Assembly: GCA_029821635.1 (NCBI GenBank)
Contig: JALGSW010000001.1
Location: 8,702-72,701, forward strand
Source of the DNA: Candidatus Zipacnadia bacterium
Lineage (GTDB): Bacteria > Armatimonadota > Zipacnadia > Zipacnadales > UBA5352
Direction of reading: 5' to 3'
Length of the DNA: 64,000 nucleotides
A program made the position numbers and the translations under genes. Within the stretch, counting starts at the first letter, position 1. Every line of letters begins with the position of its first letter. The notes beneath the pieces are model-generated. The model made no database searches. It saw only the letters and a list, made by a program, of their open reading frames with translations, and was not told where the DNA came from. This document shows positions 10,246 to 41,466 of the stretch, in pieces.

Positions 10246-10275
10246 TTGACGTGGCGAGTCGACGGCGGGTATAAT
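10246..10275 (+). promoter_or_regulatory. sigma70-type promoter for pilB
   Basis: TTGACG (10246-10251), an 18-nt spacer, then TATAAT (10270-10275), about 60 nt upstream of the pilB start. Confidence 0.6.
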
Positions 10276-10285
10276 CAGCCGGGCG

Positions 10286-10305
10286 ATAGGACTTTGGAGT
10301 CCTAT
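10286..10305 (+). promoter_or_regulatory. palindrome / 5'-leader hairpin just downstream of the pilB -10
   Basis: ATAGGACT-TTGG-AGTCCTAT, a perfect 8-bp inverted repeat starting 11 nt after the TATAAT. Confidence 0.4.
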
Positions 10306-10337
10306 GTACGGTTCGCGTCACAGCTAGTAGGCGAGAG

Positions 10338-12140
10338 GTGCGGAGAATGCGCAGGTCCCGCGGCAGGAAGTTGATCGGGCAGATGCTCATCGAGAAGGGC
10401 CACGTCACGGATGAGCAGCTCGAACAGGCCCTCGCGGCACAGGAGCAGAGTACACAGCGTATCGGCGAGATTCTGATGGACCTCGGGTTCGTCGACGAGG
10501 AGCCATTGTATCAGACGCTCGCCGAGCAGATGAGCGTTGGCTACGTGAACCTGGACAAGACCCAGGTGGATCCGAACGTGGCGACGCTCATCAGCCAGGA
10601 TGTGGCGAAGCGTTACACGGCGCTGCCGGTGGACCGTGGCGAGGAGGGGACGATTCGTGTGGCGATGGCCGAGCCCACGGACGTCATCGCGCTCGACGAC
10701 CTGAAGATGCGCCTGCAGGTGGCGGTTGAGCCACTGCTGGCGCGAGGTGACGTGATCGAGAGCATGATCGAGAAGGTTTACAGCACGGCGCCGGCCGGCG
10801 GTGGCGGCGGTGGGGGCGGGGGCGGAGGTGGCGGCGCCGGGGACTTCGGCATGGGCGATATGGCCCAGCTGGCCCAGTCCGTGCGCGAGAGCGGGATGCT
10901 CGCGGCCGAGGATGACGCCGGCGACGACTCCCGCATCGACACCGACCGCATCGCGGACGTGGCCGACGAGGCGCCGATCATCCGCATCGCCAAGGTCGTC
11001 ATCCAACGCGCCATCCAGGAGCGCGCCAGCGACATCCACGTCGAGCCGGGGAGCGAGGGCGTGCGCATCCGCTACCGCATCGACGGTGTGCTGCATGAGA
11101 TCCTTACGCTGCCCAAGTACGTGCACGCGCCGCTGATCTCGCGTCTGAAGATCATGGCCAACATGAACATCGCCGAGCGCCGCGTCCCGCAGGACGGACG
11201 CATCCACATCAGGCACGCCGGCGATGACTTCGACCTGCGCGTCTCCACCATCCCCACGACGCTCGGCGAAAAGTGTGTCATGCGGATCCTGGACAAGCGC
11301 GGTATCATGCTCGGCCTCGAGAACCTCGGCTTCTCGCATGAGATGATGGTCACGATGGACTACCTCATCTCCCAGCCCAACGGCATGATCCTCTCGACCG
11401 GACCTACCGGAAGCGGGAAGACCACCACACAGTACTCGGTTCTCAACAAGATCAACGACATCGAGACCAACATCATCACGATCGAGGACCCGGTCGAGTA
11501 TCAGATCGATGGCATCAGCCAGGTGCACGTGAACCGCAAAGCCGGGCTGACCTTCGCGATCGCGCTGAAGTACTTCCTGCGGCAGGACCCCGACATCATC
11601 CTGGTCGGCGAGATTCGCGACCTGGAGACCTCGGAGATCGCGATCCAGGCCGCTCTCACCGGTCACCTTGTGCTCAGCACCCTGCACACGAACGACGCGC
11701 CGTCCACCGTTACGCGTATGATCGACATGGGCGTCGAGCCGTTCCTCATCGCTTCCTCGATCATCGCCTCTGTCTCCCAGCGGCTCGCGCGCAAGCTCTG
11801 TGAGAGCTGCAAGGAGCCCACGACGCCCTCCCGCGACCAGCTCCTGGGCCTCGGCTTCGACCCCGACGCCCCCGAGAATCGGGACATCGTCTTCTACACC
11901 GGACGGGGCTGCCCGGCCTGCCGCAACACCGGCTACTTGGGCCGCATCGGGATCTACGAGATGATGACGATGAACACCGAGATCCGCGAACTGGTGGTCA
12001 AGCGCGCCTCCGCCGACCAGATCAAAGAGGCCGCACTGGCCAACGGGATGATCACGCTGAGCATGGACGCGCTCAACAAGGCGATGGTGGGCACGACGGA
12101 CATCGATGAGATCCTGCGCGTGGTATCCACCGTCAGGTAA
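10338..12140 (+). CDS. pilB: type IV pilus extension ATPase PilB (GspE family) with MshEN-type N-terminus
   Basis: Tandem GspII_E_N/MshEN-like motifs (IGQMLIEKGHVTDEQLEQALAAQ, RIGEILMDLGFVDEEPLYQTLAEQ). Walker A GPTGSGKTTT. Asp box/Walker B DPDIILVGEIRD. C-terminal tetracysteine CESC...CPAC. The start could be GTG 10338 or ATG 10347. Confidence 0.9.
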   Translation: MRRMRRSRGRKLIGQMLIEKGHVTDEQLEQALAAQEQSTQRIGEILMDLGFVDEEPLYQTLAEQMSVGYVNLDKTQVDPNVATLISQDVAKRYTALPVDRGEEGTIRVAMAEPTDVIALDDLKMRLQVAVEPLLARGDVIESMIEKVYSTAPAGGGGGGGGGGGGGAGDFGMGDMAQLAQSVRESGMLAAEDDAGDDSRIDTDRIADVADEAPIIRIAKVVIQRAIQERASDIHVEPGSEGVRIRYRIDGVLHEILTLPKYVHAPLISRLKIMANMNIAERRVPQDGRIHIRHAGDDFDLRVSTIPTTLGEKCVMRILDKRGIMLGLENLGFSHEMMVTMDYLISQPNGMILSTGPTGSGKTTTQYSVLNKINDIETNIITIEDPVEYQIDGISQVHVNRKAGLTFAIALKYFLRQDPDIILVGEIRDLETSEIAIQAALTGHLVLSTLHTNDAPSTVTRMIDMGVEPFLIASSIIASVSQRLARKLCESCKEPTTPSRDQLLGLGFDPDAPENRDIVFYTGRGCPACRNTGYLGRIGIYEMMTMNTEIRELVVKRASADQIKEAALANGMITLSMDALNKAMVGTTDIDEILRVVSTVR

Positions 12141-12214
12141 CGCGCAGCACCATGTAATCACAAGAGGGCGCGCGCGGCCCCCGGCTCCGCCCGCGCCCCC
12201 AGGAGGCACTGCCG

Positions 12215-13342
12215 ATGGCAGCTCAGGAAGCCGCACGAGCCAAGCGGAAGGTCAAGCCCGTCCATGATGTGCACATCGACGAGCTGCTCGAGCTCGTCGT
12301 CGAGCATAACGCCTCGGACCTGCACGTCTCCGACGGTCTTCCGCCCGTGCTGCGCATCGACGGTGAGCTCAAGAAGACGCGCTACGAGGTCATCACGCCC
12401 GAGATCTCCCAGCGCATGATCTACGACATCCTGACCGACGATCAGATCCAGCGCTTCGAGACGGACCTCGAGCTGGACTGCTCCTACGCATACCAGGACG
12501 TCGCGCGCTTCCGCGTGAACGTCTACCGCGACCGCGGCACCGTCGCCTCCGCGCTTCGTCTTATCCCGCGGCGCATCCCAACCATCGACGAACTGAACCT
12601 GCCGCACATCGTCCTCGACCTCTCCCGGCGTGTCCGCGGCCTGATCCTGGTCACGGGCCCCACCGGTAGTGGCAAGTCCACCACGCTCGCCTCGATGATC
12701 AACCAGATCAACCACGAGCGCGCCGAGCACATCATCACGATCGAGGACCCGATCGAGTACCTGCACACGCACGCCAAGTCCGTCATCAACCAGCGCGAGC
12801 TCGGGCAGGACACGCACACCTTCAACAACGCCCTGCGCGCTTCCCTCCGTGAAGACCCGGACGTCATCCTGGTCGGTGAGATGCGCGACCTTGAGACCAT
12901 CCAGCTCGCCGTCACCTGTGCGGAAACCGGTCACCTTGTCATGGCCACCCTGCACACCAACAGCGCCGCGGAGTCCGTTGACCGCATGATCGACGTCTTC
13001 CCACCCGCCGCGCAGGAGCAGATCCGCATCCAGCTCTCGAACAACCTGCAGGCGATCCTCTCCCAGCAGCTCATGCGCCGCGCCGGGCAGCCGGGCCGCA
13101 TCGCCGCGATCGAGGTCATGATCGCGAACTCCGCTATCCGCAACCTCATCCGCGAGGCGAAGACTCACCAGATCACCTCGGTCATCCAGACCTCCGCGGG
13201 CACGGGGATGCAGACGATGGACCAGGCGCTGCGCGACCTGTACCAGGCGTCGATGATTACCTACGAGGACGCAATGCGGCGCGCGCAGAACCCGCTGGAG
13301 CTCGAGAAGCTCATCCACGGCACTGGGGAAGAGGAGTCCTAG
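12215..13342 (+). CDS. pilT: type IV pilus retraction ATPase PilT
   Basis: Walker A GPTGSGKSTTLASMI, DPDVILVGEMRD, and the PilT-specific AIRNLIRE motif is present verbatim. Confidence 0.9.
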   Translation: MAAQEAARAKRKVKPVHDVHIDELLELVVEHNASDLHVSDGLPPVLRIDGELKKTRYEVITPEISQRMIYDILTDDQIQRFETDLELDCSYAYQDVARFRVNVYRDRGTVASALRLIPRRIPTIDELNLPHIVLDLSRRVRGLILVTGPTGSGKSTTLASMINQINHERAEHIITIEDPIEYLHTHAKSVINQRELGQDTHTFNNALRASLREDPDVILVGEMRDLETIQLAVTCAETGHLVMATLHTNSAAESVDRMIDVFPPAAQEQIRIQLSNNLQAILSQQLMRRAGQPGRIAAIEVMIANSAIRNLIREAKTHQITSVIQTSAGTGMQTMDQALRDLYQASMITYEDAMRRAQNPLELEKLIHGTGEEES

Positions 13343-13488
13343 CGCGGGTAGCCGTACGCAGCGTCGCCGGGCCGTTCGATGGTGGCGACAACTTGGTTAA
13401 GGTTTGACGAACTTGTTTCGCGCGTGGGCATCGCGCGTACCCTACTAGCGAGGAAAGCGTGAGTCCGCGGACGAGGAGTGGGTCATAG

Positions 13489-14730
13489 ATGCCTACATTC
13501 GCCTACACGGCCAAGGACAAGATGGGGCAGGAGGTGCAGAAGACTCAGGATGCCGCCTCCAAGGAGGCGCTCATCAAGTCTCTGCGCGATGAAGGCCTCT
13601 TCCCCACCAGCGTTGAGGAGCAGAAGACCTCGGCGCTGATGAAGAAGGCCTCCGGTAAGTCGTTCAAGTTCAGCTTCGGCAAGCGCGTCGGACTGAAGGA
13701 CCTCTCGATCTTCTGTCGGCAGTTTGCCACGATGATCAACGCGGGCGTCTCGCTGGTCCGCTGCCTGGACGTTCTCGAGCAGCAGACCTCGAACGTCGGC
13801 CTCAAGGAGATCATCCGCGACATCCAGACGGAGGTCGAGGGTGGCGCCACGCTGTCGAAGGCGATGGCGAAGTACCCCAAGGTCTTCAGCGAGCTGGCGG
13901 TCGGTCTGGTCCGCGCCGGTGAGGTCGGTGGTGTGCTTGACGACACCCTCGAACGTCTCGCGGTGTTCCTTGAGAAGGACCTCGAGCTGCGCCTGAAGAT
14001 CAAGTCGGCTATGACCTACCCGATCTTGGTTCTCGTCGTTGCGGTCGGCATCGTCAGCTTCCTTGTCATGTCCATCCTGCCCAAGTTCATGGCACTGTTC
14101 CTGGAACTCGGGATGGAGGAGAGCGACTTCCCCGCGCCGACTCGGCTGCTGATGAACATCAGCAACTTCGCGCTGCAGAAATGGTACCTGATGATCGGCA
14201 TCATCGTCGGCCTGTGGATCGCGGTCGGTCGGATCAAGGCAACCAAGAGCGGGAAGCGCTTCTTCGACGCGCTGACGCTGAAGATTCCCGTTTTCGGGCC
14301 GCTGAACCACAAGATCGCCGTCTCGCGGTTCGCGCGCACTCTCTCGACGCTGCTCTCGTCGGGTGTTCCGATCCTGCAGGCGTTCGAGACGGTGGCGGGC
14401 ACGGTGGCCAACGACGTGATCGCCGACGCGATCCTGCTCGCCCGCGCGAGCATCCGTGAGGGTGACACGATCGCGGACCCGCTGGCGGAGAGCAAGATGT
14501 TCCCGGCGATGGTCGTGCAGATGATCACGATCGGTGAAGAGACCGGTCAGCTTGACAGCATGCTCGAGAAGGTCGCTATCTTCTACGAGCGCGAGGTGGA
14601 CGCGGCGGTAGAAAGCCTTACGGCCGCAATCGAGCCGATCATGATCGTTGTGCTGGGCTTCATCGTCGGCTTCATCGTCATCGCGATGTTCCTGCCACTG
14701 ATCGGCGTCATTCAAAACCTGAGCCAGTAA
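13489..14730 (+). CDS. pilC: type IV pilus platform protein PilC (GspF family)
   Basis: 413 aa with two GspF-type repeats and three hydrophobic segments. It sits between pilT and pilD. Confidence 0.9.
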   Translation: MPTFAYTAKDKMGQEVQKTQDAASKEALIKSLRDEGLFPTSVEEQKTSALMKKASGKSFKFSFGKRVGLKDLSIFCRQFATMINAGVSLVRCLDVLEQQTSNVGLKEIIRDIQTEVEGGATLSKAMAKYPKVFSELAVGLVRAGEVGGVLDDTLERLAVFLEKDLELRLKIKSAMTYPILVLVVAVGIVSFLVMSILPKFMALFLELGMEESDFPAPTRLLMNISNFALQKWYLMIGIIVGLWIAVGRIKATKSGKRFFDALTLKIPVFGPLNHKIAVSRFARTLSTLLSSGVPILQAFETVAGTVANDVIADAILLARASIREGDTIADPLAESKMFPAMVVQMITIGEETGQLDSMLEKVAIFYEREVDAAVESLTAAIEPIMIVVLGFIVGFIVIAMFLPLIGVIQNLSQ

Positions 14731-14764: not shown

Positions 14765-14795
14765 TTCGGCGGCCGGTGCGGGACCGGCCGCCGAA
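14765..14795 (+). terminator. strong hairpin after pilC (attenuator or terminator, no U-tract)
   Basis: TTCGGCGGCCGGT-GCGGG-ACCGGCCGCCGAA, a perfect 13-bp stem 35 nt after the pilC stop. It is followed by CTGCGCATGC, not a T-run. Confidence 0.4.
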
Positions 14796-14910: not shown

Positions 14911-14919
14911 GAGGTGAGT

Positions 14920-15780
14920 ATGATCTCCACAGGCGCGGCCGGAACGGCCCTGATCGTGGTTGTCTTCCTGTTTGGGGCCTCCATCGGCAGCTTCCTGAAC
15001 GTGGTGATCTTCCGCTTGCCGCGGGGTGAGTCGCTGGTCCACCCGCGCTCGCGTTGCCTCAGTTGCGGCTCGGACCTCGGACTGGTGGACCTCGTGCCCG
15101 TCTTGAGCTACATCGGCTTGCGCGGGTGCTGCCGGCACTGCGCGCGCTCCTACTCCCCGCGCTACATGCTCGTCGAGCTGTTCACAGGGATCGCGGCGAT
15201 CGGGGCGCTCTACCTCTTCGGCCCGACCCTCCACGCGCCCCTGGCGTTCCTCGCGGTCTGCTGCCTCGTGGTGGTCTTCTTCATCGACCTCGACCACTAC
15301 ATCATCCCGGACGGTACCGTGGCAATCATCGCCGGCGTCGGCGTGGCGCTCGACGTCCTCCGGCTGCTGCAGGGCGGGGTGTCGGGGGCGATAATGTTCA
15401 ACGAGCGGCTCAGTTCCACTTTGGAGTACACGGTGGTGCTGCCGCGCTCGCTGGTCGGCATGGCGGTGGGCGCGGGCCTGTTCGTGGCAATCGCCTTCGT
15501 GGCCGAGCGGGTCTTCAAGCGGCCGGGGATGGGCTGGGGCGACGTGAAGCTCGCCGGCGCGATGGGCGCGATCCTCGGGCCCGGGTACCAGTTCCTGACG
15601 TATTTTCTGCTCGCGGTCTTCATCGGAGCGATCGTGGGCCTGATCTGCATGGCGGCGGGCTTCGTCGGGCGACGGGATTACATCCCGTTCGGGCCGATGA
15701 TGGCGGCCGCGGGCGTGGCGATGATCTACTTCGGCGACATCCTTACACCAATCGTGATGTCGCGGTTCCTTATAGGCTGA
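14920..15780 (+). CDS. pilD: prepilin peptidase / N-methyltransferase PilD (A24 family)
   Basis: GSFLNVVIFRLP, Cys pairs CLSCG...CRHCA, FFIDLDHYIIPD and GMGWGDVKLAGAMGAILG (the two catalytic-Asp regions). The start is at ATG 14920 with a GAGGTGAG RBS. The upstream part of the track ORF is the repeat array. Confidence 0.9.
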   Translation: MISTGAAGTALIVVVFLFGASIGSFLNVVIFRLPRGESLVHPRSRCLSCGSDLGLVDLVPVLSYIGLRGCCRHCARSYSPRYMLVELFTGIAAIGALYLFGPTLHAPLAFLAVCCLVVVFFIDLDHYIIPDGTVAIIAGVGVALDVLRLLQGGVSGAIMFNERLSSTLEYTVVLPRSLVGMAVGAGLFVAIAFVAERVFKRPGMGWGDVKLAGAMGAILGPGYQFLTYFLLAVFIGAIVGLICMAAGFVGRRDYIPFGPMMAAAGVAMIYFGDILTPIVMSRFLIG

Positions 15781-15861: not shown

Positions 15862-15891
15862 GGCGCGGGAGTCACTAGTGACGCCCGCGCC
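15862..15891. promoter_or_regulatory. 30-nt near-perfect palindrome between pilD and the first pilin gene
   Basis: GGCGCGGG-A-GTCACTAGTGAC-G-CCCGCGCC. The outer 8-bp arms are perfect, the inner 12-mer is self-complementary, and there is one A/G mismatch. It could be an operator or a terminator hairpin. Confidence 0.35.
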
Positions 15892-15956: not shown

Positions 15957-16706
15957 ATGACGCAAACTGACAAGCGGCGCGGGTTCACGCTGGTGGAGAT
16001 GCTCGTTGTCATATCTATCATCGTCGTCCTCGTGGCGATCCTCTTCCCAACCTTCTCGACTGCGCGGGAGAAATCTCGTCAGGTCAATTGTCAGACCAAC
16101 CTCTCCAGCCTCGTCTCGGCCCTTCAGGACTATAAGCGGCAGTACCACAGGTACCCGCCGCAGCCGATCTACGACGCCGGCCTCCAGCTCTACATCGGCG
16201 GCTTTTCCGCGCTGTATCCTGATTTCGTCGATGACTGGAGCAAGATGGTCTGCCCTGACGACCGCACCGTCATCGACCGGCAGGACGACGCCAAAGCCCG
16301 ACGCTACTGCTCCTACAACGGTGTGATCGAGCTGGCTGAGGACCGCGGCTCCAGCAACCCGTGGGAGTTCGCGGTGGACTCGGACACCTCGAATGCGAAG
16401 GTCACCTACAACTACTACGGCTACGACGAGAAGGGCTGGAATCTCACCACGCCGCTCAGCCCGCCTGGCGATGCGAAGCCCGCGTGGCTCGACCGCGGCT
16501 GGAAGTACTACCCGCGGCTGCTCAACATCTACGCGCCCGAGTACACGATGGTTACGCACTGCACCTTCCACCGGAGCTTCTACTCCAAGACCGCCGAGCA
16601 GCGCGACACACACGTGAACCTCGGCTCCGAGACCGACACGCTCGTGGTGGAGAACTGGCAGAACACGTCGAGCGGCGCGAGCCTGTTCGAGAAGCAGGAG
16701 CAGTAG
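15957..16706 (+). CDS. prepilin-type N-terminal cleavage/methylation domain protein (candidate major pilin)
   Basis: Leader MTQTDKRRG followed by FTLVEMLVVISIIVVLVAILFP (G|F with Glu at +5). It is the first pilin-like gene after pilD, has its own 176-nt upstream region, and encodes 249 aa. Confidence 0.8.
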   Translation: MTQTDKRRGFTLVEMLVVISIIVVLVAILFPTFSTAREKSRQVNCQTNLSSLVSALQDYKRQYHRYPPQPIYDAGLQLYIGGFSALYPDFVDDWSKMVCPDDRTVIDRQDDAKARRYCSYNGVIELAEDRGSSNPWEFAVDSDTSNAKVTYNYYGYDEKGWNLTTPLSPPGDAKPAWLDRGWKYYPRLLNIYAPEYTMVTHCTFHRSFYSKTAEQRDTHVNLGSETDTLVVENWQNTSSGASLFEKQEQ

Positions 16707-16823
16707 CCTGAGGAGCAGGCGCCGGGCGAAGATACGCACGCAAGGGCGCGGGAGCGACCGCGCGGCAGCGACCGGATGCGAAGGGATACCGCCGTGACGA
16801 CAAGCGCGAGGAAAGGGACGGTC

Positions 16824-18449
16824 ATGGGACGAGGACGCCGCGGTATGACGCTGGCCGAGCTGCTTGTTGCCATGCTCATCCTGCTCGTGGGCATCTACGC
16901 CATCGCGCGCGGCTTCCCGTCGCTGTTCGGCAACCTCGAGGGTGAGCGCATCCGCACGGAGACGGCCCGGCGGGTCCAGGCGCGCATGGAGAACCTCAAG
17001 ACCACGGCCTGGGCACTTCCCGAAGCCATCACCGGGCACGATCCGCTCGACGCCTCCGTTATCGAGCCGGGGCTGTACCCCGACGAGAACCAGGACCCGG
17101 TGCCGGGCAATCCGCGCGATGACCTCACCTGGGTGATCGGCGAGACCTTCGATGTGCCGATCGCGCAGCCGGGCCAGGCCTACTCGGTCTATTCTCTGAA
17201 CCTCGGCCCCGCCACCGTCCAGGACACGACTGCGGTGGCTGACTACGTGCAGGTCACGCGGTTGGTCGCGTTGGAGCGGACGGACGTTGGGACGCCACTG
17301 GGCAACGATCAGTTCTACGTGGATGAGGACGGCTATCTCAACGCGCCGGCCACCTACGCCTCGGCCGAGGTCGACTACGTGTGGGTGGACGAGAACGGTG
17401 AGCGGCACGGAGTGCTCGGTGAGGTCGTGGACAACGCCAACGCCAGCGTCAGCGCCCTGCCGGTGCGCGCGGTGGCGGTCGTCGATGCTCCCGCGTTCGT
17501 GAACGTGCTGCCCGATCAGTGCACCGCGACCGCCCTGGAGCCGTTCACTACCGTGATCGGCCAACCCGCCAACGTCGCGAGCGGCCGGGCCGTGCTGGAG
17601 AGCACCTACGGCGCGACGCTGCTGCTTTCCGCCGGTGACGCGAACGAGACGCTGCAGGTCAACTATCAGCAGATGACCGAGGCCGACTCGATGGGCAGCC
17701 CGCGTCGGGTGCCCTTCATGATGGAGGAGATGGCCGCGCCGACCCAGCCGCCCTACCTGGTGGACCTGGCGTTCCGCGGCATCGACGACGAGAGCCCGCT
17801 GTTCACCGCCAACCTGCTCGGCGCCGCCTTCACCGATCCGGTCTACGTGCTCATCGTGGACACGCAGACGGGAGACGCGTGGACGGATGCGGAGGACTGG
17901 GTGGGCCTGGACTTCATCGAGAGCAAGCTCACGCTGGACTGGGACGATGCGGCGGCGCCGCTGACCGCCGTCGGGGCCCGCGGACACGATCTGCGCGTCT
18001 ACTACCGCACCATCGCCGGGCACACGGTCGTGGTGCAGAAGGCGCCGTCGTGGTTCGTCGAGGACTACACCGATGCCGGTCGCTTGTCCGTCCATGACAC
18101 CTACGTCACCGACGGGCTGGCCGACTCGGTTGACTACCGCTACTACCAGGTCGGGCCCGATCCCGACGACGCGACCTACACGCGGTTGCTCTTCCCGATG
18201 TCGGCGGCGAATCAGATGGTGGCCGTTGACTACATGGCCGGCGCTGCCGAGCCCTACGACCGGGTGAGCGGCGAGCTGCACGTCATCTCCGGCGACACGC
18301 TCAACGCGACGCTCAATGAGCCGGACGTGCATGGCGTGTTGGCCGTGCGCGGGGTCTCAGTGACGGTGCGCGGCTGGTGGCACATAGCCAGCGGGCGCGT
18401 GGAGATGGTCGGCATTGATACCTTCCTGACACCGGAGCCGCTGCTCTAG
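16824..18449 (+). CDS. large PilV-like minor pilin (prepilin leader)
   Basis: MGRGRRG|MTLAELLVAMLILLVGIYAIARGF has a class-III leader with Glu at +5. 541 aa. The start is at ATG 16824 with a GAAAGGGA RBS. Confidence 0.7.
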   Translation: MGRGRRGMTLAELLVAMLILLVGIYAIARGFPSLFGNLEGERIRTETARRVQARMENLKTTAWALPEAITGHDPLDASVIEPGLYPDENQDPVPGNPRDDLTWVIGETFDVPIAQPGQAYSVYSLNLGPATVQDTTAVADYVQVTRLVALERTDVGTPLGNDQFYVDEDGYLNAPATYASAEVDYVWVDENGERHGVLGEVVDNANASVSALPVRAVAVVDAPAFVNVLPDQCTATALEPFTTVIGQPANVASGRAVLESTYGATLLLSAGDANETLQVNYQQMTEADSMGSPRRVPFMMEEMAAPTQPPYLVDLAFRGIDDESPLFTANLLGAAFTDPVYVLIVDTQTGDAWTDAEDWVGLDFIESKLTLDWDDAAAPLTAVGARGHDLRVYYRTIAGHTVVVQKAPSWFVEDYTDAGRLSVHDTYVTDGLADSVDYRYYQVGPDPDDATYTRLLFPMSAANQMVAVDYMAGAAEPYDRVSGELHVISGDTLNATLNEPDVHGVLAVRGVSVTVRGWWHIASGRVEMVGIDTFLTPEPLL

Positions 18450-19246: not shown

Positions 19247-19348
19247 GCGCGACCGACGAAGGGTATACTGCAGGCGAATGACACTCCGACGGTCGCCAGC
19301 GCTTTCGGGCGAGAGCCAACGGACGATGCGCGGCTGAGGATAGAGAAT

Positions 19349-21253: not shown

Positions 21254-21296
21254 AGCCAGGCACGCTCACAGATCCGGCAGGCGGAGGCCGAAGGGA

Positions 21297-24197: not shown

Positions 24198-24245
24198 CGG
24201 CCGGCCACCGGCCGCTCGCTCGGGCATCGCACGGAGGTCATCGAT

Positions 24246-29234: not shown

Positions 29235-29296
29235 GGGTGCCCCTCGCCGGGGACTTGCGACGGACCAGAGGCGATGTTCTGGAGAGGTGCCAATTG

Positions 29297-34753: not shown

Positions 34754-34969
34754 CGTCGGTGCATGGAGGCCGGGCGGAGCGGGCGATGGTTGTCCGCGAA
34801 AGCTTAACGCAGGGACGATAGAGGGATCATGCTCCGGGTGGGGAAGATGAGCGTGTACCGGAGACTTGACATTGGCCTGCCAGATATAATAGAGTAACCG
34901 AGGATCAGGCTGCCCGGAGCGGCCATCGCTCGGGAGTGAGAGGCTGCAATACGGCAGGAGGCGCGCTAC

Positions 34970-36307
34970 ATGGCCAAGGGCGCAACGCATGTCCTGGGCC
35001 TGGACATCGGGACAGCATTCATCAAGGCAGCGGAGATCCAACTGCGCGGCAGTGAGTTCCACGTTGTCGGTCGCCCTGCAGTGATCCCGACGCCTCGCGG
35101 TGCCGTGCGTGGTGGCGTTATCGTTGACGCCCCCGCGGTGACCGAGGCGCTTCAGGAGATCCGCGCCCACTTCGGCATCAAGTCGAAGAAGGTGATCGCC
35201 TCGGTAGGCGGCGACTCATCCGTCGTCGTGCGTATCACCGAGGTGCCCCGTATGTCCGGCAAAGAGCTCGATGAAGCTGTCCAGTGGGAGCTCGACGAGC
35301 AGACGCCCTTCCCCGTTGACGAGGTCATCTACGACTACTCCCCGATCGATCGCCCCGACGCCGACCCTGAGGCGACCGAGATGGAGATCCTGCTCGCTGT
35401 AGCGCAGGAGGACCTTGTCGCGGCGCACGTCGAGGCTATCCAGGGCGCAGGGATGCAGCCGGTGGCTATGGACATCGAACCGCTCGCCATCGGTCGCGCC
35501 ATCATAGACGCCGCAGGCGAGGAGATGGCCGACGAGACCATCGTCAACGTCCACGTCGGCGCTACCAACTCGCTGATCCTGATCTTCCGGCACAAGCTGC
35601 TCGGCTTCGTGCGCGTCATCCCCTCGGGTGGCGAGAACCTCAGCCAGGCCCTCGCCCAGAGCCTCATGCTCGACCAGGAAAACGCTGAAGTTGTTAAGCT
35701 TCAGCTCGGAAACCTTAACGAGGGCGGGCTTGTCGAAGAACCGACGGACGAGTTCGGCGGCGCCGGCATGTTCGAGGAGGAAGAGGAGGACGACGGGCTC
35801 GGAACCGACTCGGTCTTCGAGCTTTCCAGCACTGAGGACGCGGCCGACCTCGGCCCGGTGGACGACCGCGCTACGCACCTTGAGATCGAGGAGGACCTGG
35901 GCGAGATCGAGGAGCCTCCAGCCGCAGAGATGCCGGCGCCGCCGGCCATGGCGGCCGACGCGGAGCCGCAGGACCCGGATCTGGTCGAGGCGCGGGAGCA
36001 CGTCGCCGAGGCCCTTACCGAACCGGTCCTCGACCTCGCAACTGAGGTCCGCAGGTCCCTGGAGTTCTACCGCCGGCAGCACCGCAACGAACCGATCGAC
36101 CGCATCGTGATCACCGGCGGGACAGCCAATCTCGAGGGCATCGCGCAACTGATGACCGACGAGACAGGCGTCAAGTCCGAAGTCGGCAACCCGTTCAAGC
36201 ATATGCAGTTCGACGATGACACCATTTCTGAGCACTACCTGCGCGACATCGGGCCATCCAGCGTCGTGGCCGTCGGGCTCGCGCTCCGCGACATGGTCGC
36301 CGAGTGA
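34970..36307 (+). CDS. pilM: type IV pilus assembly protein PilM (actin-like ATPase fold) with acidic insertion
   Basis: VLGLDIGTAFIKAAEIQ N-terminus and an IVITGGTANLEGI C-terminal phosphate-2-like motif. A roughly 90-aa E/D-rich insertion is encoded around 35712-35990. Confidence 0.85.
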   Translation: MAKGATHVLGLDIGTAFIKAAEIQLRGSEFHVVGRPAVIPTPRGAVRGGVIVDAPAVTEALQEIRAHFGIKSKKVIASVGGDSSVVVRITEVPRMSGKELDEAVQWELDEQTPFPVDEVIYDYSPIDRPDADPEATEMEILLAVAQEDLVAAHVEAIQGAGMQPVAMDIEPLAIGRAIIDAAGEEMADETIVNVHVGATNSLILIFRHKLLGFVRVIPSGGENLSQALAQSLMLDQENAEVVKLQLGNLNEGGLVEEPTDEFGGAGMFEEEEEDDGLGTDSVFELSSTEDAADLGPVDDRATHLEIEEDLGEIEEPPAAEMPAPPAMAADAEPQDPDLVEAREHVAEALTEPVLDLATEVRRSLEFYRRQHRNEPIDRIVITGGTANLEGIAQLMTDETGVKSEVGNPFKHMQFDDDTISEHYLRDIGPSSVVAVGLALRDMVAE

Positions 36308-36354: not shown

Positions 36355-37233
36355 GTGCTGAGGATCGACCTGCTGCCCCGACAGATAGCGATTGCGAGGA
36401 TGAACAAGCTCCTCGTCGCGCTCATAATCGTGCTCCTGGTCGTCGAGCTTGGCGCGCTCGGCGCGATGCTGATGGGCGTCAAGGGCCAGATCGGCACGGT
36501 CGACGAGGAGCTCACTAAGATCACGAAGATCGCGGACCAGGTCGAGGACCTCCAGGCCGAGGTCAACGCCAAACAGGCCGACCTCGATCCGATTAAGCTG
36601 AAGGTGGACTTCGTCGAGGACGCGAATAGCTCTGGCGAGCAGTACTGGGATCGCTTCCACGCGATCAACGAATACATCTACGACAATGCGCAGCTCACGC
36701 GCTTCAGTCTCACCGGGGGCAGCTCAGTCAACTTCACGGTGATTGTCGGCGACACGACCGACGCGGCTCGCTTTGTGCTGAACCTGGTGCATTGCCCGGC
36801 CCTGTCGAACGTCGCCGTCTCGGGCCTGCCGGCCGGAATGAGCGTCGAGGGCGTGGGTGGCGCCGCGGCAGGTGGCTTCACGCCCATGGCAGGTGGCATG
36901 GACCCGATGATGGAACCTGGCATGGACCCGGGGATGGAAGCTGGTATGGACCCGGGCATGGAGCCCGGAATGGGCGGAATGGGCGGAATGGGCGGAATGG
37001 GTCCGCAGGCCTCCGCGAGCGGTGACATTACGCTCGACGTCACGGCCACGCTGACCGAGCCCACGGAAGTCCCCTCGCCGGGCGGCGGAGCCGCCGCGGG
37101 CGGAATGCCCGGAATGCCGGGAATGCCCGGAATGGAGCCAGGGATGGAACCGGGCATGGAGCCAGGGATGGAGCCTGGGATGGAGCCTGGGATGGACCCT
37201 GGTGCCGGCGGCGCAGAAGCACCGCCCGCGTAA
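36355..37233 (+). CDS. pilN: PilN-like pilus alignment protein with two Met-Pro-Gly repeat blocks
   Basis: GTG start. The MLRIDLLPRQ (INLLP-type) motif is followed by a TM segment and a coiled coil. It sits directly after pilM. Confidence 0.75.
   Translation: MLRIDLLPRQIAIARMNKLLVALIIVLLVVELGALGAMLMGVKGQIGTVDEELTKITKIADQVEDLQAEVNAKQADLDPIKLKVDFVEDANSSGEQYWDRFHAINEYIYDNAQLTRFSLTGGSSVNFTVIVGDTTDAARFVLNLVHCPALSNVAVSGLPAGMSVEGVGGAAAGGFTPMAGGMDPMMEPGMDPGMEAGMDPGMEPGMGGMGGMGGMGPQASASGDITLDVTATLTEPTEVPSPGGGAAAGGMPGMPGMPGMEPGMEPGMEPGMEPGMEPGMDPGAGGAEAPPA
36898..37005 (+). repeat. coding tandem repeat block 1 (MDP/MEPG/MGG units)
   Basis: Encodes MDPMMEPGMDPGMEAGMDPGMEPGMGGMGGMGGMG. The nucleotide level shows GGAATGGGC repeated three times. 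Confidence 0.85.
37102..37203 (+). repeat. coding tandem repeat block 2: (GGAATGCCN)x3 then (ATGGARCCNGGN)x6
   Basis: Encodes GMPGMPGMPG-MEPG-MEPG-MEPG-MEPG-MEPG-MDPG. The 12-nt units from 37132 to 37203 are nearly identical at the DNA level. Confidence 0.9.
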
Positions 37234-37286
37234 CTGCAGCAACGCGGCAGCATCGGGCCGCATGACCGCAGCACAGGAGCAATCTG

Positions 37287-38036
37287 ATGGGCCGTATACC
37301 AACCTGGGCAGTCATACTCATAGGTGTCTTCCTCTTCGCGGGAGCGGGAGCGCTCGTCTTCATGCTCATGATTAAGCCTGAGCGCGAGCGCCTGGACGAT
37401 CTGCAGGGCCAGCTTCAGGAGAAGACGGACATCGCGAACAAGCTCGACGCCACAAATGCACAGCTTGCGGATGTCACAGCCCAGTGGCTGGAGGCCCAGG
37501 AGCAGGTGCAGGACCTGCGCGAGGCGCGCAGTATCCCGATTTCATTCGGCCACCCGGCCGGCGCGATGATCGCTCTGTGGTATGAGTATCGCCACGATCT
37601 CGTCCCGCTTATCGAGGACTGGGTCCAGTCCAGCGGCTGCACCATCGAGAGCGGCGCGAGCTTCCCTGCACCGCCGATGACGCCGCCCGCCGCCCCGCCC
37701 AGTGGCTTCATGCAGGTGCCGGGCGGCCAGCCGATCGCGCTCACCGTCTCAGGCACGCTTCAGCAGCTTGAGCGGCTCTACCGGTCGCTGGATCAGTTCG
37801 AGCGCGTGGTCACCATCAGTGACCTCGTGCTGGTCCCAACGGGCGAGGGCGACAGGCTGCAGGCGCCGGTCAACCTGGCCATCTATTTGCTGGTCGAGGC
37901 GCCCACGCCCGCCCCCGCACCTGCGGGCGACGGAGAGGGCGGGATGGAAGGCGACATGCCGCCGGGGGACGGCGGAGAGCCCATGCCCGAGGGCGAGGGC
38001 GAAGTTCCCGTCGATGAAGAACTGCCCCCTGAGTAA
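37287..38036 (+). CDS. pilO: PilO-like pilus alignment protein
   Basis: N-terminal TM (WAVILIGVFLFAGAGALVFMLMI), then a coiled coil (ERLDDLQGQLQEKTDIANKLDATNAQLADV), then an alpha/beta domain. Acidic M/P/G tail. Sits after the pilN-like gene. Confidence 0.7.
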   Translation: MGRIPTWAVILIGVFLFAGAGALVFMLMIKPERERLDDLQGQLQEKTDIANKLDATNAQLADVTAQWLEAQEQVQDLREARSIPISFGHPAGAMIALWYEYRHDLVPLIEDWVQSSGCTIESGASFPAPPMTPPAAPPSGFMQVPGGQPIALTVSGTLQQLERLYRSLDQFERVVTISDLVLVPTGEGDRLQAPVNLAIYLLVEAPTPAPAPAGDGEGGMEGDMPPGDGGEPMPEGEGEVPVDEELPPE

Positions 38037-38118
38037 CCGCCCGGTCCCCCCTTGGGACGTGGGCTTGTTGGTCAGATATTCGTGGTCCATATGACGTACG
38101 CAGTGGAAGGGTCCGACT

Positions 38119-38949
38119 GTGATCGAGGAGCAGAAGGCAAAAGCCCTGTTTGCCGGCGGCATAGCCCTGTTCGTGGTAGGGCTGGTTGTCCTCATGCTGT
38201 TCGTGATCCCTGCGGCGAGGCACACGCAGGTCGCCATGGCGCAGGATGAGGAGGACGCCGCGCCGGAACCCGACGCCGCTGGCGAAGTTGACCCGGGGAT
38301 GGATCCCGGCATGGAGCCTGGGAGGGAGCCCGGCATGGAGGGAATGCTCGGCATGGAGGGCATGCCCGGCGCCATGCCAGGTGGCGGCGGAGGTGGCGGA
38401 GTGGGCGAAGTGCCGCCCGGCCAGATCCTGGACCCGCTCGAGGCCAGCCGCCCCAACCCGTTCTCGCCGCGTTCGAGCATGGCGACGCCCGCCGCGGCCG
38501 CCGCGGCACTGGCCAGCCCGCACTACGGGCCCGACTGGAGCCAGCTCCCGATCGCCGAGCGCGTCGCATTCGTGCGGCCCGACATCCCGTCGGCCCCGAC
38601 ACCCGCACTGCCCCGCCTCGATCCGCCGCCGGAGTCGCAGGTGCGAATCACCAGCATCCTGTGGGACGCGTCCGGGCAGGCAATGGCCGCCTACGAGGAT
38701 CCCGACGGCAAGAAGGGCGAGCTCAAGCCCGGCGACAGAGTTCCCGGCACCGGCCTGACAGTGCGGGAGATCACCCGGGTGGGCGCTACGCTCGAGAACC
38801 CGCGGACCGGCGAGACGCAGGAACTTGAGCTGCGCCCGCGTGTTGAGAAGAAGGAAGAGCCCCCGCAGAGGCAGCCGAGGCGTCCGTCCCGTGGCGGCAG
38901 CAGTAGCAGCAACCGCGGAGGCTTCCCTGGCGCGCCTCCCGGCGGTTAG
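38119..38949 (+). CDS. PilP-like protein (TM anchor, Met-Pro-Gly repeat, C-terminal beta domain)
   Basis: GTG start and TM segment ALFAGGIALFVVGLVVLMLFVI. Repeat DPGMDPGMEPGREPGMEGMLGMEGMPGAMPGGGGGG (about 38291-38400). The C-terminus ITSILWDASGQAMAAYEDPDGKKGELKPGDRVPGTGLTVREITRVGATLE resembles the PilP beta-sandwich pattern. Confidence 0.5.
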   Translation: MIEEQKAKALFAGGIALFVVGLVVLMLFVIPAARHTQVAMAQDEEDAAPEPDAAGEVDPGMDPGMEPGREPGMEGMLGMEGMPGAMPGGGGGGGVGEVPPGQILDPLEASRPNPFSPRSSMATPAAAAAALASPHYGPDWSQLPIAERVAFVRPDIPSAPTPALPRLDPPPESQVRITSILWDASGQAMAAYEDPDGKKGELKPGDRVPGTGLTVREITRVGATLENPRTGETQELELRPRVEKKEEPPQRQPRRPSRGGSSSSNRGGFPGAPPGG

Positions 38950-39003
38950 TGTATACGTTGATAGCACACGATTGCGGGGAAGTAAGAGCAGGAGTGGATC
39001 AAG

Positions 39004-39735
39004 ATGCGTAAGACAGTGCTCGCGCTGATTGCTCTCATGATGTTGGGCGCCTTCGTTCTTCCTGTGATGGCGCAGGAGGAAGAGGTGCGGCTTGACCTCG
39101 ACTTCCGGGGCGAGTCCCTCGACCAGATTCTGCAGTTGTTCCGGCGCGGCTACGCGCTGGAGTACACACTGGGTGAGGGTGTCGATCCGAACACCCAGAT
39201 TACCACGCATCTTCGTGGCGTCACGCTCGACCAGGCCCTTCGCTCGATCCTTGAGCCCAACGGCCTGCTGGCGATCGAGCAGAACGGCCGCTACGTGGTC
39301 AAGGAGCGCCCGACGCCCACGGAGCGCACGGAGCCCGCAAGCCGCACGGTGACGCCCGTGTTCACGACCGAGAGCCGCACGCCGCCCGCACCGACCCGCC
39401 AGGCGCGCGCCTACGAGCCGCGCCGCGGAGCGGCGGAGGAAGAAGAGGGCGAAGAGGAAGAGCGCGATGAGGTCATGGAGATCATCTATCCCATGTACCT
39501 CGGCGCGGACATGGCCTCGGCCATCTTCGGCGGCGGCTTCGTTGAGGCCGGCGGCTACTACGGCGGCGGCAGCGGCGGCAGCAGCAGCAGCTACGGCGGC
39601 AGCAGCAGCAACAACTCGAGCTTCGGTGGCAATCGCAGCAACAGCAGCTCCAGCTTCGGGAGCAACCGCAGCAACAGCAGCAGCAACTTCGGGAGCAATC
39701 GCAGCAGCAGCAGCAACCGCAACTCGGGTTACTGA
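39004..39735 (+). CDS. secreted STN/secretin-N0-like domain protein with FG/Ser/Asn low-complexity tail
   Basis: Signal peptide MRKTVLALIALMMLGAFVLPVMAQE. Domain LDLDFRGESLDQILQLFRRGYALEYTLGEGVDPNTQITTHLRGVTLDQALRSILEPNGLLAIEQNGRYVV. Acidic linker, then a GGYYGGGSGGSSSSYGGSSSNNSSFGGNRSNSSSSFGSNRSNSSSNFGSNRSSSSNRNSGY tail. Confidence 0.7.
   Translation: MRKTVLALIALMMLGAFVLPVMAQEEEVRLDLDFRGESLDQILQLFRRGYALEYTLGEGVDPNTQITTHLRGVTLDQALRSILEPNGLLAIEQNGRYVVKERPTPTERTEPASRTVTPVFTTESRTPPAPTRQARAYEPRRGAAEEEEGEEEERDEVMEIIYPMYLGADMASAIFGGGFVEAGGYYGGGSGGSSSSYGGSSSNNSSFGGNRSNSSSSFGSNRSNSSSNFGSNRSSSSNRNSGY
39550..39732 (+). repeat. coding AGC/AAC-rich tandem repeat (about 33-nt units encoding FG[GS]NRSNSSS)
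   Basis: AGCTTCGGTGGCAATCGCAGCAACAGCAGCTCC / AGCTTCGGGAGCAACCGCAGCAACAGCAGCAGCAAC / TTCGGGAGCAATCGCAGCAGCAGCAGCAAC. There are long (AGC)n runs. Confidence 0.85.
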
Positions 39736-39834
39736 ACGCTTTGCCACAAAGCTGGTGTGGCGTAGCGCGCCTATCGTAGACACGTTCGGGTAGATGGCGT
39801 CGTTCGCAGACGGAGTTCCTGGGAGGGCCCAAAG

Positions 39835-41466
39835 GTGACGCTCTTCAATCGGCATATGAAGGCCTTCATTGTAGCGTGCATCGCAGCAACACTCGTAGTC
39901 AGCCCCGGTATCAAGGCCGCGCGCGCTGACACGCCGGCGGATGAAGCGCCGATCAACATCGACGTACGTGACATGGAGGTCGGCGACGTTCTGCGGATGC
40001 TTGCGAGGGCCGCGAACGTTAACATCATCGTCGGCAAGGGCGTAGCGGGAGAGATCAACTCCCTCACCCTGCGTGATGTCTCCGTGGAGATGGCCTTGCG
40101 AGCGATCACCGAGGCCAACGGCTACTACTGGCGAAAAGATGGCAACATCTACTTCGTCACGTCCGAGCCGACCGGAGCCGAGGTGGTGCCGGTCGCACCC
40201 GAAACGGACGCCGGGCAGCCGACTCCGACTGCGGGGACGGCCATTCCGCGTCCCCCCGACACCGGGACCGTGAGCCAGCCCAGGCCACCGGCGACGCAGG
40301 AGCCGCCTCGGATCATCTCCGAGCTGCTTCCCCTCAACTACAAGAGCGCGAACGAGCTCGCGGCGCTGTTCGGCGCCCAGACGGCGTGGTCCTACACGCC
40401 CAACGACCTCCGCGCGCCCGGCACCGGACTCTCCGGGATGCGTTCGCCCGCAACTGATAGCACCCTTGGCTCGATGGGCGCCTACCGCGGCCGCCTCGGC
40501 GGCAACGGTCTGCCTCAGTTCGATGGCGACATGGGTGGCGGCACGCAGGGCAACCAGGGCGGCCTCGGCGGCGGCCTCAGCCAGACCAGCAGCTCCAACG
40601 TTGGTGGCACCACCGGCACCAGCAGCCAGGACACGATCGAGCTTCCCGGCGAGATGGTCATCACGGCCATCATGAGCCACAACGCGATCCTCGCCCGAGG
40701 CACGCGTGAAGAGCTCGACGAGTTCCGCGAGATGCTCAACCTCCTCGACATAGCGCAGAAGCAGGTCGAGATCTCCACGAAGTGGATCGACGTGCAGACG
40801 ATTGCGGCCGAGGCGCTCGGTATCGACTGGTCGGTCACGAACGGCGCCTGGGAGATCTTCAACCTGGGCTTCGCGCCGGGCGAAGCCGCCAACAACGGCA
40901 TTCGCTTCGGGCGCGGCCGCTGGTGGGCCGAGTTGTCGGTGCTGATTAACACCAGCCAGGCGACGGTCGTCAATGAGCCGCGCATCGTCTGCATGAACGG
41001 AATGCCCGGCTCGATCTCGTTCGAGACGGAGATCCCCTACTTCTCCGCGACCATCAGCTACAACCAGTTCGGCCAGCGCACCGTGGACTACACCTCTGAC
41101 TCGGTGACCGTCTCCAACGAACTGTCGGTCGTCCCGCAGATCAACCCGGACGATTCGGTGAAGATGCTGCTGGCGCCGCAGTTGCAGGATCAGGTTGGCA
41201 CGGTCGAGGGCCCGAACGGCGAGCGGATCCCGATCATCACCTCGCAGTACGTGGAGACGATGGTCCGCGTCCCGGACGGTGAGACGGTGGTTCTCGGCGG
41301 CGTCATCCGCGCCGACGAGTCGGTGAACGTCCGGAAGACGCCCCTGCTCCACCAGATCCCGATCATCGGCAAGCTCTTCCAGTCCAGGCGCGTCGAGAAG
41401 AACAACAGCGAGCTTCTCATCTTCGTCACGCCGAAGATCGTGAGGGACGCGTCGAGCGCCTACTAG
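39835..41466 (+). CDS. pilQ: type IV pilus secretin PilQ (short form)
   Basis: GTG start and a signal-like N-terminus. STN/N0-like INIDVRDMEVGDVLRMLARAANVNIIVGKGVAGEINSLTLRDVSVEMALRAITEANGYYW. C-terminal secretin motif VPDGETVVLGGVIRADESVNVRKTPLLHQIPIIGKLFQSRRVEKNNSELLIFVTPKIV. Confidence 0.9.
   Translation: MTLFNRHMKAFIVACIAATLVVSPGIKAARADTPADEAPINIDVRDMEVGDVLRMLARAANVNIIVGKGVAGEINSLTLRDVSVEMALRAITEANGYYWRKDGNIYFVTSEPTGAEVVPVAPETDAGQPTPTAGTAIPRPPDTGTVSQPRPPATQEPPRIISELLPLNYKSANELAALFGAQTAWSYTPNDLRAPGTGLSGMRSPATDSTLGSMGAYRGRLGGNGLPQFDGDMGGGTQGNQGGLGGGLSQTSSSNVGGTTGTSSQDTIELPGEMVITAIMSHNAILARGTREELDEFREMLNLLDIAQKQVEISTKWIDVQTIAAEALGIDWSVTNGAWEIFNLGFAPGEAANNGIRFGRGRWWAELSVLINTSQATVVNEPRIVCMNGMPGSISFETEIPYFSATISYNQFGQRTVDYTSDSVTVSNELSVVPQINPDDSVKMLLAPQLQDQVGTVEGPNGERIPIITSQYVETMVRVPDGETVVLGGVIRADESVNVRKTPLLHQIPIIGKLFQSRRVEKNNSELLIFVTPKIVRDASSAY

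Follow-up and report, generated by a model that had tools for sequence, protein, structure and literature searches.

A single-strand type IVa pilus locus with enlarged pilin-like proteins and two giant exported proteins, conserved across Armatimonadota

A 64,000-nucleotide stretch of DNA from a Candidatus Zipacnadia bacterium (phylum Armatimonadota; assembly GCA_029821635.1, contig JALGSW010000001.1, positions 8,702–72,701; hereafter the window), with a G+C content of ~68%, was analysed computationally. An unbroken series of 17 plus-strand genes could be located at 10246–41466 of the window, in the order pilB-pilT-pilC-pilD, a block of seven further genes, pilM/N/O/P, an STN-domain gene and pilQ. 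All 17 were found with the coordinates and lengths given in the original prediction, a model-made annotation of the same sequence. With moderate confidence, the locus is read here as encoding a retractile type IVa pilus (T4aP) whose enlarged priming/tip complex carries giant adhesin-like cargo; the association of the cargo with the pilus is one that we infer. The observations behind this reading are the gene content, the leader motifs, the pilin-like fold in a model of one of the large proteins (p966), the propeller repeats of another (p1662) and a synteny that extends across the phylum. Dozens of independent genomes show this order again, and the arrangement is not a product of chance. The seven proteins of the block consist of 249, 541, 265, 634, 966, 1662 and 1818 amino acids (aa) and are referred to by these lengths:

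15957–16706, plus strand: p249, prepilin and candidate major pilin (N_methyl and SBP_bac_10 matches; DUF1559 signature)
16824–18449, plus strand: p541, large prepilin and candidate minor pilin (N_methyl match; G↓MTLAE)
18449–19246, plus strand: p265, second DUF1559/GspG-like prepilin and paralogue of p249 (N_methyl and SBP_bac_10 matches)
19349–21253, plus strand: p634, large prepilin and candidate minor pilin (N_methyl match; two CxxC...CxxC motifs)
21297–24197, plus strand: p966, pilin-like protein with large beta-rich modules (RG↓Q(A/S/T)L N-terminus, without Glu5)
24246–29234, plus strand: p1662, Sec-exported giant with PQQ-like and NHL propeller repeats (Pfam family scan), in the PilY1 position
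29297–34753, plus strand: p1818, Sec-exported giant of a very narrow family (type I signal peptide; three conserved Cys4 zinc-ribbon-like motifs)

The intergenic spacing within the block was 117, -1, 102, 43, 48 and 62 nt, in agreement with the tiny gaps or overlaps that had been claimed for 15957–34753, and with no spacing above 117 nt the seven genes are likely co-transcribed. Pfam analysis revealed the N_methyl signature above threshold in four block proteins (249, 541, 265 and 634 aa), and a six-frame scan of the whole 64-kb window detected prepilin-type leaders in p249, p541, p265 and p634 only. Among motif-bearing orthologues, Gly-1 together with Glu+5 was retained in 21/21 sequences of p249, 22/24 of p265, 27/27 of p541 and 29/30 of p634. 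The leader-bearing proteins would be expected to be processed by PilD. Mature sizes were summed using cleavage sites judged by eye from the sequences; the mature non-filament proteins of the block amount to ~5,800 residues, or ~6,000 when p249 is included.

The first gene of the block encodes a prepilin with a 9-aa leader, the cleavage motif G↓FTLVE, Pro22 and a strong GGGAGG ribosome-binding site. Mature p249 has ~240 aa, near the 208-residue chain of Myxococcus xanthus PilA. When a profile of p249 and p265 was searched against PDB sequences, it matched major pilins and GspG across ~59 residues of the alpha-1 helix, with E-values of 2e-16 for Geobacter PilA, 1.8e-11 for M. xanthus PilA, 5e-11 for GspG and 5.5e-10 for Thermus PilA. 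GspG was also the top-scoring NCBIfam model for both proteins, over the N-terminus only and far below its cut-off. Since the PDB matches span the whole alpha-1, p249 is probably the major pilin. The start codon of p265 is uncertain (GTG 18449 or ATG 18476); this protein is read as a p249 paralogue that may serve as an adaptor (FimU/GspH-like) or as a second pilin.

The remaining two leader-bearing proteins are considerably larger. A weak N-terminal match to the PilV model TIGR02523 could be observed in p541, followed by a globular remainder of ~480 aa, and p634 produced weak N-terminal matches to HpsC and Verru_Chthon C, far below the cut-offs. Profiles of both proteins against PDB sequences yielded weak matches to the first ~25 residues only, which represent the generic pilin helix, and hhalign comparison of p541 with p634 revealed the N-terminal helix alone in common (96%, 62 columns). 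The globular parts had no match in any library searched. Each protein joins a class III leader to ~480–570 further residues, the composition of a modular pilin. The CxxC...CxxC motifs of p634 lie at residues 211–231 and 424–445 and occur sporadically, in 7% of p634 orthologues, against a chance expectation of ~0. The oversized minor pilins of the original prediction would correspond to p541, p634 and p966, while p249 and p265, with their major-pilin/GspG-type alpha-1, fall outside that description.

An AlphaFold2 model of p966, built from a 37-sequence alignment, reached a predicted local distance difference test score (pLDDT) of 87.7 and a predicted template-modelling score of 0.88. The model contained a 59-residue N-terminal helix (residues 14–72), after which came a beta-sheet and large domains rich in beta structure. 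All motif-bearing orthologues share an invariant G-Q-(A/S/T)-L start, and position +5 was occupied by I, V or L, never by Glu, in 42/42 of them. Homologues were distributed over 148 clusters, the named ones all from Armatimonadota, with family lengths of 819–1168 aa. No Pfam or NCBIfam model matched p966, and hence no GspK-type model either; the family profile against PDB sequences gave nothing useful. Foldseek comparison of the model with the PDB produced weak matches only, to a jelly-roll/carbohydrate-binding module (CBM)-like domain of ~190 residues, with Thermus ComZ (6qvi) at rank 3 (probability 0.21, template-modelling (TM) score 0.11–0.17, root-mean-square deviation (rmsd) 18), and with such matches a family assignment at the level of the fold was impossible. 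PilX homologues and GspK are minor (pseudo)pilins without Glu5 that sit atop the complex, and PilX contacts PilY1 (Treuner-Lange et al., PMC7541494). Lacking Glu5, with a predicted helix and in the matching gene position, p966 can be read as a putative PilX/GspK-type cap pilin.

The two giants follow p966. The type I signal peptide of p1662 was read from the sequence as MRFGRASFLLTALIGAALAASLPAMA with cleavage before A, and this N-terminus is conserved in the family consensus. NHL repeats were detected in 19/19 family members and PQQ_2, a BamB-type propeller, in 13/19. Homologues formed 21 clusters, conserved phylum-wide in the N-terminal ~450 aa and in the NHL segment, and the family profile found nothing among PDB sequences. 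In the fimU-pilVWXY1 operon of Pseudomonas the PilY1 gene follows pilX, and the p1662 gene directly follows the pilX-type gene in the window and in every locus that holds both genes. As had been predicted, the block follows the fimU-pilVWXY1 order, with prepilins, then a Glu5-less PilX/GspK-type pilin and then a large propeller protein. Since p1662 shows no PilY1 domain despite its Sec export, propeller repeats and position, it is classed as an analogue of PilY1 and not as a member of that family. A Cys4 zinc-ribbon-like motif occurs sporadically in p1662 orthologues (8%, chance ~0). Matches to the NHL region in Sericytochromatia, Cyanobacteria, Actinomycetota and a beta-proteobacterium (L059–L066) were dismissed as generic repeats, with no prepilin gene nearby.

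No Pfam or NCBIfam domain matched p1818, and its family profile gave nothing useful against PDB sequences. A word-indexed search returned homologues in 22 clusters, and the C-terminal 1200 residues gained 64 matches among 1.84 billion representative proteins. The CxxC...CxxC motifs lie at residues ~61–81, 598–632 and 766–783; the Cys columns are conserved in the family, whose members produced weak zinc-ribbon matches. Zinc knuckles are unusual in extracellular proteins, and it may be speculated that they substitute for disulfides in anaerobes. Identification of p1818 as a lipoprotein through Cys13 of the signal peptide was rejected because Cys13 is not conserved in the family consensus. Paralogy among the large proteins was likewise rejected by hhalign probabilities (p1662/p1818 0.7%, p966/p1818 0.3%, p634/p966 1.1%). 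Wherever the source was named, all homologues of p966, p1662 and p1818 were from Armatimonadota.

The distribution of the block was determined by scanning one genome per GTDB species; 60 loci were returned, onto which the window proteins were mapped. The complete order pilD-p249-p541-p265-p634-p966-p1662-p1818-pilM was present in 14 distinct contigs with identities down to ~30%. These belong to 'Candidatus Zipacnadia', WS1 and Armatimonadia metagenome-assembled genomes (MAGs), and most also keep the pilC end upstream. Many further loci truncated by contig ends were collinear with the window. In two loci (L067, L069) pilB-pilT-pilC-pilD stands directly upstream of the block, and in another (L068) pilT-pilC-pilD does so, with an unrelated gene before them. 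The possibility that the giants usually occur away from pilus genes, which the original prediction had named as a ground for abandoning it, is contradicted by this pilD-block-pilM synteny in 14 distinct contigs.

A core module is kept more widely, in Chthonomonadales (including a Chthonomonas calidirosea MAG) and other Armatimonadota, among them two complete chromosomes. Its members are pilD, in loci whose flank extends far enough, one or two small pilins, p541-like, p634-like and p966-like proteins, a p1662 relative and one or two further giants of 998+1866, 2083, 2398 or 2838 aa. Comparison using family hidden Markov models revealed that p966 is homologous over its full length in all loci and that a p1662 relative occupies the first giant slot in every case. 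In the Zipacnadia/WS1-type loci the second giant resembles p1818; in the other loci no match could be found except one weak C-terminal match in L039. The occupants of this second slot include a protein with two Golvesin_C matches and a PQQ_2 propeller (L058:11305–18498) and one with PQQ_2 (L039:14196–20444), and P0200, a distant relative of p1818, carries a CBM_5_12 carbohydrate-binding module. The presence of Golvesin_C, PQQ_2 and CBM_5_12 in these proteins hints at carbohydrate-directed functions. The block genes evolve faster than pilC, pilD and pilM when compared in the same genomes; in L023 the identities were 58% for pilD and 46% for pilM compared to 30% for p541, 32% for p634, 33% for p1662 and 30% for p1818. 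A conserved slot with a replaceable occupant and fast evolution is the pattern expected of exposed tip or cargo proteins and not of core machine parts, which suggests that the giants belong to the former.

The core machinery surrounds the block on both sides:

10338–12140, plus strand: pilB, extension ATPase (Pfam T2SSE, 438 bits, and MshEN)
12215–13342, plus strand: pilT, retraction ATPase (TIGR01420, 501 bits; cut-off 319)
13489–14730, plus strand: pilC, platform protein (Pfam T2SSF, two stretches)
14917–15780, plus strand: pilD, prepilin peptidase (A24_N_bact and Peptidase_A24, above Pfam cut-offs)
34970–36307, plus strand: pilM (PilM_2, 183 bits; TIGR01175, 223 bits, cut-off 133)
36355–37233, plus strand: gene in the pilN position (assigned by position and topology: N-terminal transmembrane helix, coiled region, PGME-type repeat tail)
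37287–38036, plus strand: pilO (Pfam PilO, 28.6 bits; cut-off 22)
38119–38949, plus strand: pilP-like gene (position; TIGR03021, 25.1 bits, below the 34.65 cut-off)
39004–39735, plus strand: extra STN-domain gene (Pfam STN, 31.1 bits; cut-off 28.4)
39835–41466, plus strand: pilQ, secretin (Pfam Secretin, 133.7 bits; STN/N0 and one Secretin_N match)

The best full-length match of PilB was TIGR02538 with 615 bits (cut-off 676), against 578 bits for GspE, both below their cut-offs. The best NCBIfam matches of PilC were the Thermus-type (433 bits) and Myxococcus-type (413 bits) models, against 373 bits for GspF, all below the equivalog cut-offs, and the secretin scored 200 bits on the PilQ model TIGR02515 against 133 bits on GspD, again both below cut-off. 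GspL, GspM and GspC could not be found with NCBIfam, the GspC model scoring only 20 bits (cut-off 150) for the PilP-like protein. Since PilT and PilM/N/O/P are present and GspL/M/C were not found, the machine is classified, from its gene content, as T4aP-type and not as a type II secretion system (T2SS). The claim of a single-strand, all-in-one T4aP locus was thereby borne out, with PilT and PilM exceeding their NCBIfam thresholds and with T4aP models favoured for PilB, PilC and PilQ.

Several of the machine proteins have particular features. Residues 13–64 of PilB carry an MshEN-type cyclic di-GMP (c-di-GMP)-binding motif (NF053729, 66.6 bits; cut-off 38), through which pilus extension may be c-di-GMP-controlled. 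The pilD reading frame opens at 14776, and ATG 14917 is the likely start because orthologues are 273–289 aa long; the Cys4 motif of PilD is kept in 94% of orthologues. The gene in the pilN position gave a weak Amuc_1101 match only, and no AMIN domain was matched by Pfam in PilQ. In the extra STN protein, a signal peptide accompanies an STN domain that resembles the N0 domain of PilQ; the protein further has an acidic stretch, and a 33-nt tandem repeat (39602–39714) codes for its Ser/Asn/Gly-rich tail. STN matches occur at the same place between pilP and pilQ in related loci, and the protein may be a secretin-associated or pilotin-like partner. PilN, PilO and PilP share Pro/Gly/Met/Glu-rich low-complexity tracts, for example MEPGMEPGMEPG, which are encoded by 9–36-nt tandem DNA repeats at 36894–37202 (3' end of pilN), in the C-terminus of pilO and at 38299–38370 (5' part of pilP); a repeat flavour common to three alignment-complex proteins is unusual.

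Candidate regulatory elements could be detected at three positions:

10246–10275, plus strand: sigma-70-like site before pilB (TTGACG-18-TATAAT, 11/12; consensus match only)
15862–15891, plus strand: GC-rich hairpin between pilD and p249 (dG -29.4 kcal/mol, z = -3.6)
34866–34895, plus strand: sigma-70-like site in the 216-nt gap before pilM (TTGACA-18-TAGAGT, 10/12; consensus match only)

The first of the sigma-70-like sites begins exactly at 10246, the start coordinate given in the original prediction. The hairpin is formed by a near-perfect palindrome, GGCGCGGGAGTCACT/AGTGACGCCCGCGCC, followed by the strong GGGAGG Shine-Dalgarno sequence. Of four relatives checked, three (L009, L003 and L008, not L012) have a similar hairpin sequence in this place, and the element could act in processing or stabilising the transcript of the first pilin gene, or as its operator. 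The p249-p541 intergenic region showed no significant structure. An Rfam scan of the window returned one tRNA and no riboswitch. No sigma-54 site was found upstream of p249, matches across the window being below chance, and scans for intrinsic terminators remained at chance level with none convincing.

A mechanism can be proposed that assigns minor-pilin roles, docking of the giants, display at the tip and a ligand to these components. The filament and tip genes are set between pilD and pilM of a complete retractile T4aP machine, in which p249 would be the main filament subunit and p265, p541, p634 and p966 the FimU/GspH-, PilV/GspI-, PilW/GspJ- and PilX/GspK-like counterparts, the last three of them enlarged to 541–966 aa by mutually unrelated extra modules. 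These four proteins would assemble on PilC as a priming complex capped by the Glu5-less p966. After folding in the periplasm, the Sec-exported p1662, probably together with p1818, would attach to the p966 cap as PilY1 does. Polymerisation of p249 driven by PilB would then push the tip complex through the PilQ secretin to the pilus end, where p1662 and p1818 would act as adhesins whose substrates are probably polysaccharides or particles; PilT would retract the fibre. The polysaccharide or particulate ligand is the weakest step of the mechanism; the idea is derived from the CBM-like folds and modules and from polysaccharide metabolism, which one study reports as conserved in Armatimonadota (PMC11535203).

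Several observations weigh against this reading of the locus. Contact of the giants with the pilus is deduced from gene context, and the physical feasibility of fitting ~5,800 non-filament residues into the periplasm and passing them through the secretin is assumed. The assignment of p249 as major pilin builds on alpha-1 similarity alone, and dozens of PulG-like genes are possible elsewhere in Armatimonadota genomes, 79 having been counted in Fimbriimonas (PMC4072686). For p966, the originally proposed 'PilX_N-type' identity stands in so far as Glu5 is absent, a helix is predicted and the gene position fits; membership of Pfam PilX_N is not established, since that family was not matched significantly (E ~0.09 in 2/37 family members). 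In the same way, the large protein predicted in the place of PilY1 does have propeller repeats and the position, while the PilY1/PilC domain (PF05567/IPR008707) occurred in 0/19 members of its family at E <= 1. The AlphaFold2 model of the C-terminal 1200 residues of p1662, built from a 7-sequence alignment, was unusable (pLDDT 43.6). With so poor a partial model, the fold comparison was uninformative: Foldseek returned generic multi-propeller and NHL proteins, which were not relied on, and PilY1 fell outside the top 50. The promoter-like sites before pilB and pilM and the conserved hairpin before p249 make several transcription units plausible and suggest these in place of a single operon. Finally, the giants of two loci are not followed by pilM. 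In L005 (GCA_053529235.1 JAIVNZ010000118.1) p966-p1662-p1818 stay together and precede DUF4380 and AP endonuclease-family genes, and in L033 p1662-p1818 stay together in a locus that ends at the contig edge; the tip module is thus separable from pilMNOPQ while the giants remain together.

The same genes could also form a secretion device, in which a short (pseudo)pilus works as a piston and drives the giants out via the secretin, as substrates that are released or stay on the cell surface and not as stable parts of a tip. Each giant carries a type I signal peptide and, like the substrates of a T2SS, would reach its fold in the periplasm, and cargo genes beside the machine with a swappable second slot fit a substrate cassette. 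The best NCBIfam model for p249 and p265 is GspG; generic systems of Armatimonadetes were reassigned to T2SS by Denise et al. (PMC6668835), a T2SS is annotated in the Zipacnadia paper (PMC10290634), and Treuner-Lange et al. regarded PilY1 itself as an analogue of a T2SS substrate (PMC7541494). A secretion device is nevertheless considered unlikely, as PilT above its family cut-off and PilM/N/O/P in place of GspL/M/C are T4aP features, the T4aP models score higher for PilB, PilC and PilQ, and the p1662 relative always adjoins the PilX-type gene even where pilM lies elsewhere, which suggests a stoichiometric partnership of the two proteins.

The size of the giants (~180 and ~195 kDa) makes their passage through the secretin questionable and has to be set against the retractile pilus with tip-borne cargo. 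They might instead be envelope or periplasmic parts of the machine (a conduit, plug or anchor), or unrelated surface proteins that share the neighbourhood, and never exit on the pilus. The extra STN-domain gene and the repeat-rich tails of PilN/O/P hint at such a modified envelope complex, and the PilY1 domain was not found. This appears quite improbable, however, since the giants evolve faster than the core machine parts and since a second slot filled by non-homologous proteins in other orders characterises exposed effector or adhesin modules and would be unusual among structural parts; the giants moreover lie between the pilins and pilM, matching the place of PilY1 after pilX, and not beside the secretin gene. 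A Thermus-type DNA-uptake (competence) pilus, with p966 in the ComZ role as DNA receptor at the tip, is very improbable. The rank-3 position of ComZ with the p966 model would agree with it, as would the short evenly spaced strands that DSSP assigned to residues 259–317 of the model, which are compatible with a solenoid segment, and the best score of PilC on the Thermus-type model. However, the ComZ match is not significant, comEA/comEC-type genes were not seen among the flanking genes examined, and the two giants would be left unexplained.

Returning to the retractile pilus with enlarged tip, a bolder form of the proposal describes a six-protein tip complex of ~0.6 MDa with three hypertrophied pilins and two giants, the second giant being an exchangeable cassette that sets the target of the pilus, such as insoluble polysaccharides or particles; as a whole this form is rather doubtful. 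If true, the T4aP would combine a pilus with a secretion system and bring giant folded proteins to the tip of a fibre that can be retracted. Its cargo would apparently exceed any type IV pilus tip complex found described and would raise the question of secretin passage.

The genes flanking the locus could be annotated as follows. An alpha-L-arabinofuranosidase-like gene (8149–10095) stands directly upstream of the pilus locus with no evident link to it. Directly after pilQ, aroC and an aroK-aroB fusion gene are present (41527–44395), and the same pilQ-aroC-aroKB order occurs downstream in locus L004. Linkage of pilMNOPQ with aroK-aroB is known from Proteobacteria and is echoed here. The downstream flank also encodes a PASTA-domain protein, a zf-HC2 anti-sigma factor, a ROK kinase, IMPDH, a DsbH-like thioredoxin, an SLT transglycosylase and Lnt, with no evident pilus link.

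Type IV pili are among the most widespread surface machines of prokaryotes, and how they gain tip specificity is an active question. The locus offers a phylum-wide and strongly syntenic case of a priming/tip module grown several-fold. It defines families that lacked informative annotation, namely p966, p1818 and the globular parts of p541 and p634, with only generic NHL/PQQ annotation for p1662, and it would correct annotations in MAG studies of Armatimonadota, in which such loci are likely mislabelled as T2SS or 'hypothetical'. It may also serve as a natural test of the maximal tip cargo of a T4aP machine and its secretin, of the docking of non-PilY1 partners by a PilX-type cap and of cassette exchange of cargo. 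Since the core module occurs in Chthonomonas calidirosea, and possibly in other cultured Armatimonadota, the predictions are experimentally testable.

Textbook minor pilins have about 150–200 aa. The closest known counterpart of the block is FimU-PilVWX-PilY1 of Pseudomonas aeruginosa and M. xanthus (PMC7541494), with which it shares four leader pilins bearing G-1/E+5 plus a last pilin without Glu5, and clustered genes associated with PilB, PilT, PilC, PilD, PilMNOP and PilQ. In contrast to that system, the minor-pilin counterparts here measure 541, 634 and 966 aa; unlike PilY1, p1662 has NHL and PQQ repeats without a PilY1 domain and is followed by a second giant. T4aP genes are usually dispersed over several loci (PMC6668835), whereas here the tip module is embedded between pilD and pilM within one locus. 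The GspH-I-J-K/GspG tip of the T2SS has a similar order, from a major-type pilin to a Glu5-less largest last member, and its cap is likewise proposed to contact folded periplasmic cargo. Unlike the T2SS, the locus encodes PilT and PilM/N/O/P, and its matches to Gsp pseudopilins are N-terminal only and far below the cut-offs.

The enlargement of the pilins can be compared with modular pilins, of which more than 1,200 were surveyed with an extreme of 860 residues (Raynaud et al. 2021, PMC8179133). As in Streptococcus sanguinis PilB/PilC, CofB and ComZ (PMC8179133), a pilin N-terminus carries bulky modules expected to be exposed at the tip, and by this modular-pilin principle very large 'pilins' would be able to polymerise. 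Unlike the surveyed modular pilins, the added modules here match no searched signature, the p966 family extends to 1168 aa compared to 860, and three such pilins co-occur together with two non-pilin giants. ComZ of Thermus thermophilus (6qvi) resembles p966 in being large, pilin-like and equipped with beta-rich insertions, and its gene likewise lies among pilin genes of a Terrabacteria lineage; p966, in contrast, is almost twice as long, lacks Glu5 and has no sequence similarity to it, and the structural match is marginal. Unusually large pilin-like cassettes of non-proteobacterial phyla are also represented by the Verru_Chthon cassette (TIGR02596/02599) and cyanobacterial HpsB-D (NF038304). 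Membership of p249, p265 and p634 in these families was rejected, the matches of 19–29 bits covering the N-terminal helix only against cut-offs of 70–256 bits.

The original prediction had called the architecture undescribed, and the literature search is in keeping with this: the arrangement was not described in the Zipacnadia paper (PMC10290634), in which pili are unmentioned, in the Fimbriimonas genome paper (PMC4072686) or in the other literature searched. The underlying logic is the already known one of FimU-PilVWX-PilY1 in T4aP and of the GspH-K tip in T2SS, and the enlargement follows the modular-pilin principle. What appears new is the co-occurrence of three hypertrophied pilins, including a Glu5-less family of 819–1168 aa, with a propeller giant outside the PilY1 family and an exchangeable second giant in a single-locus T4aP.

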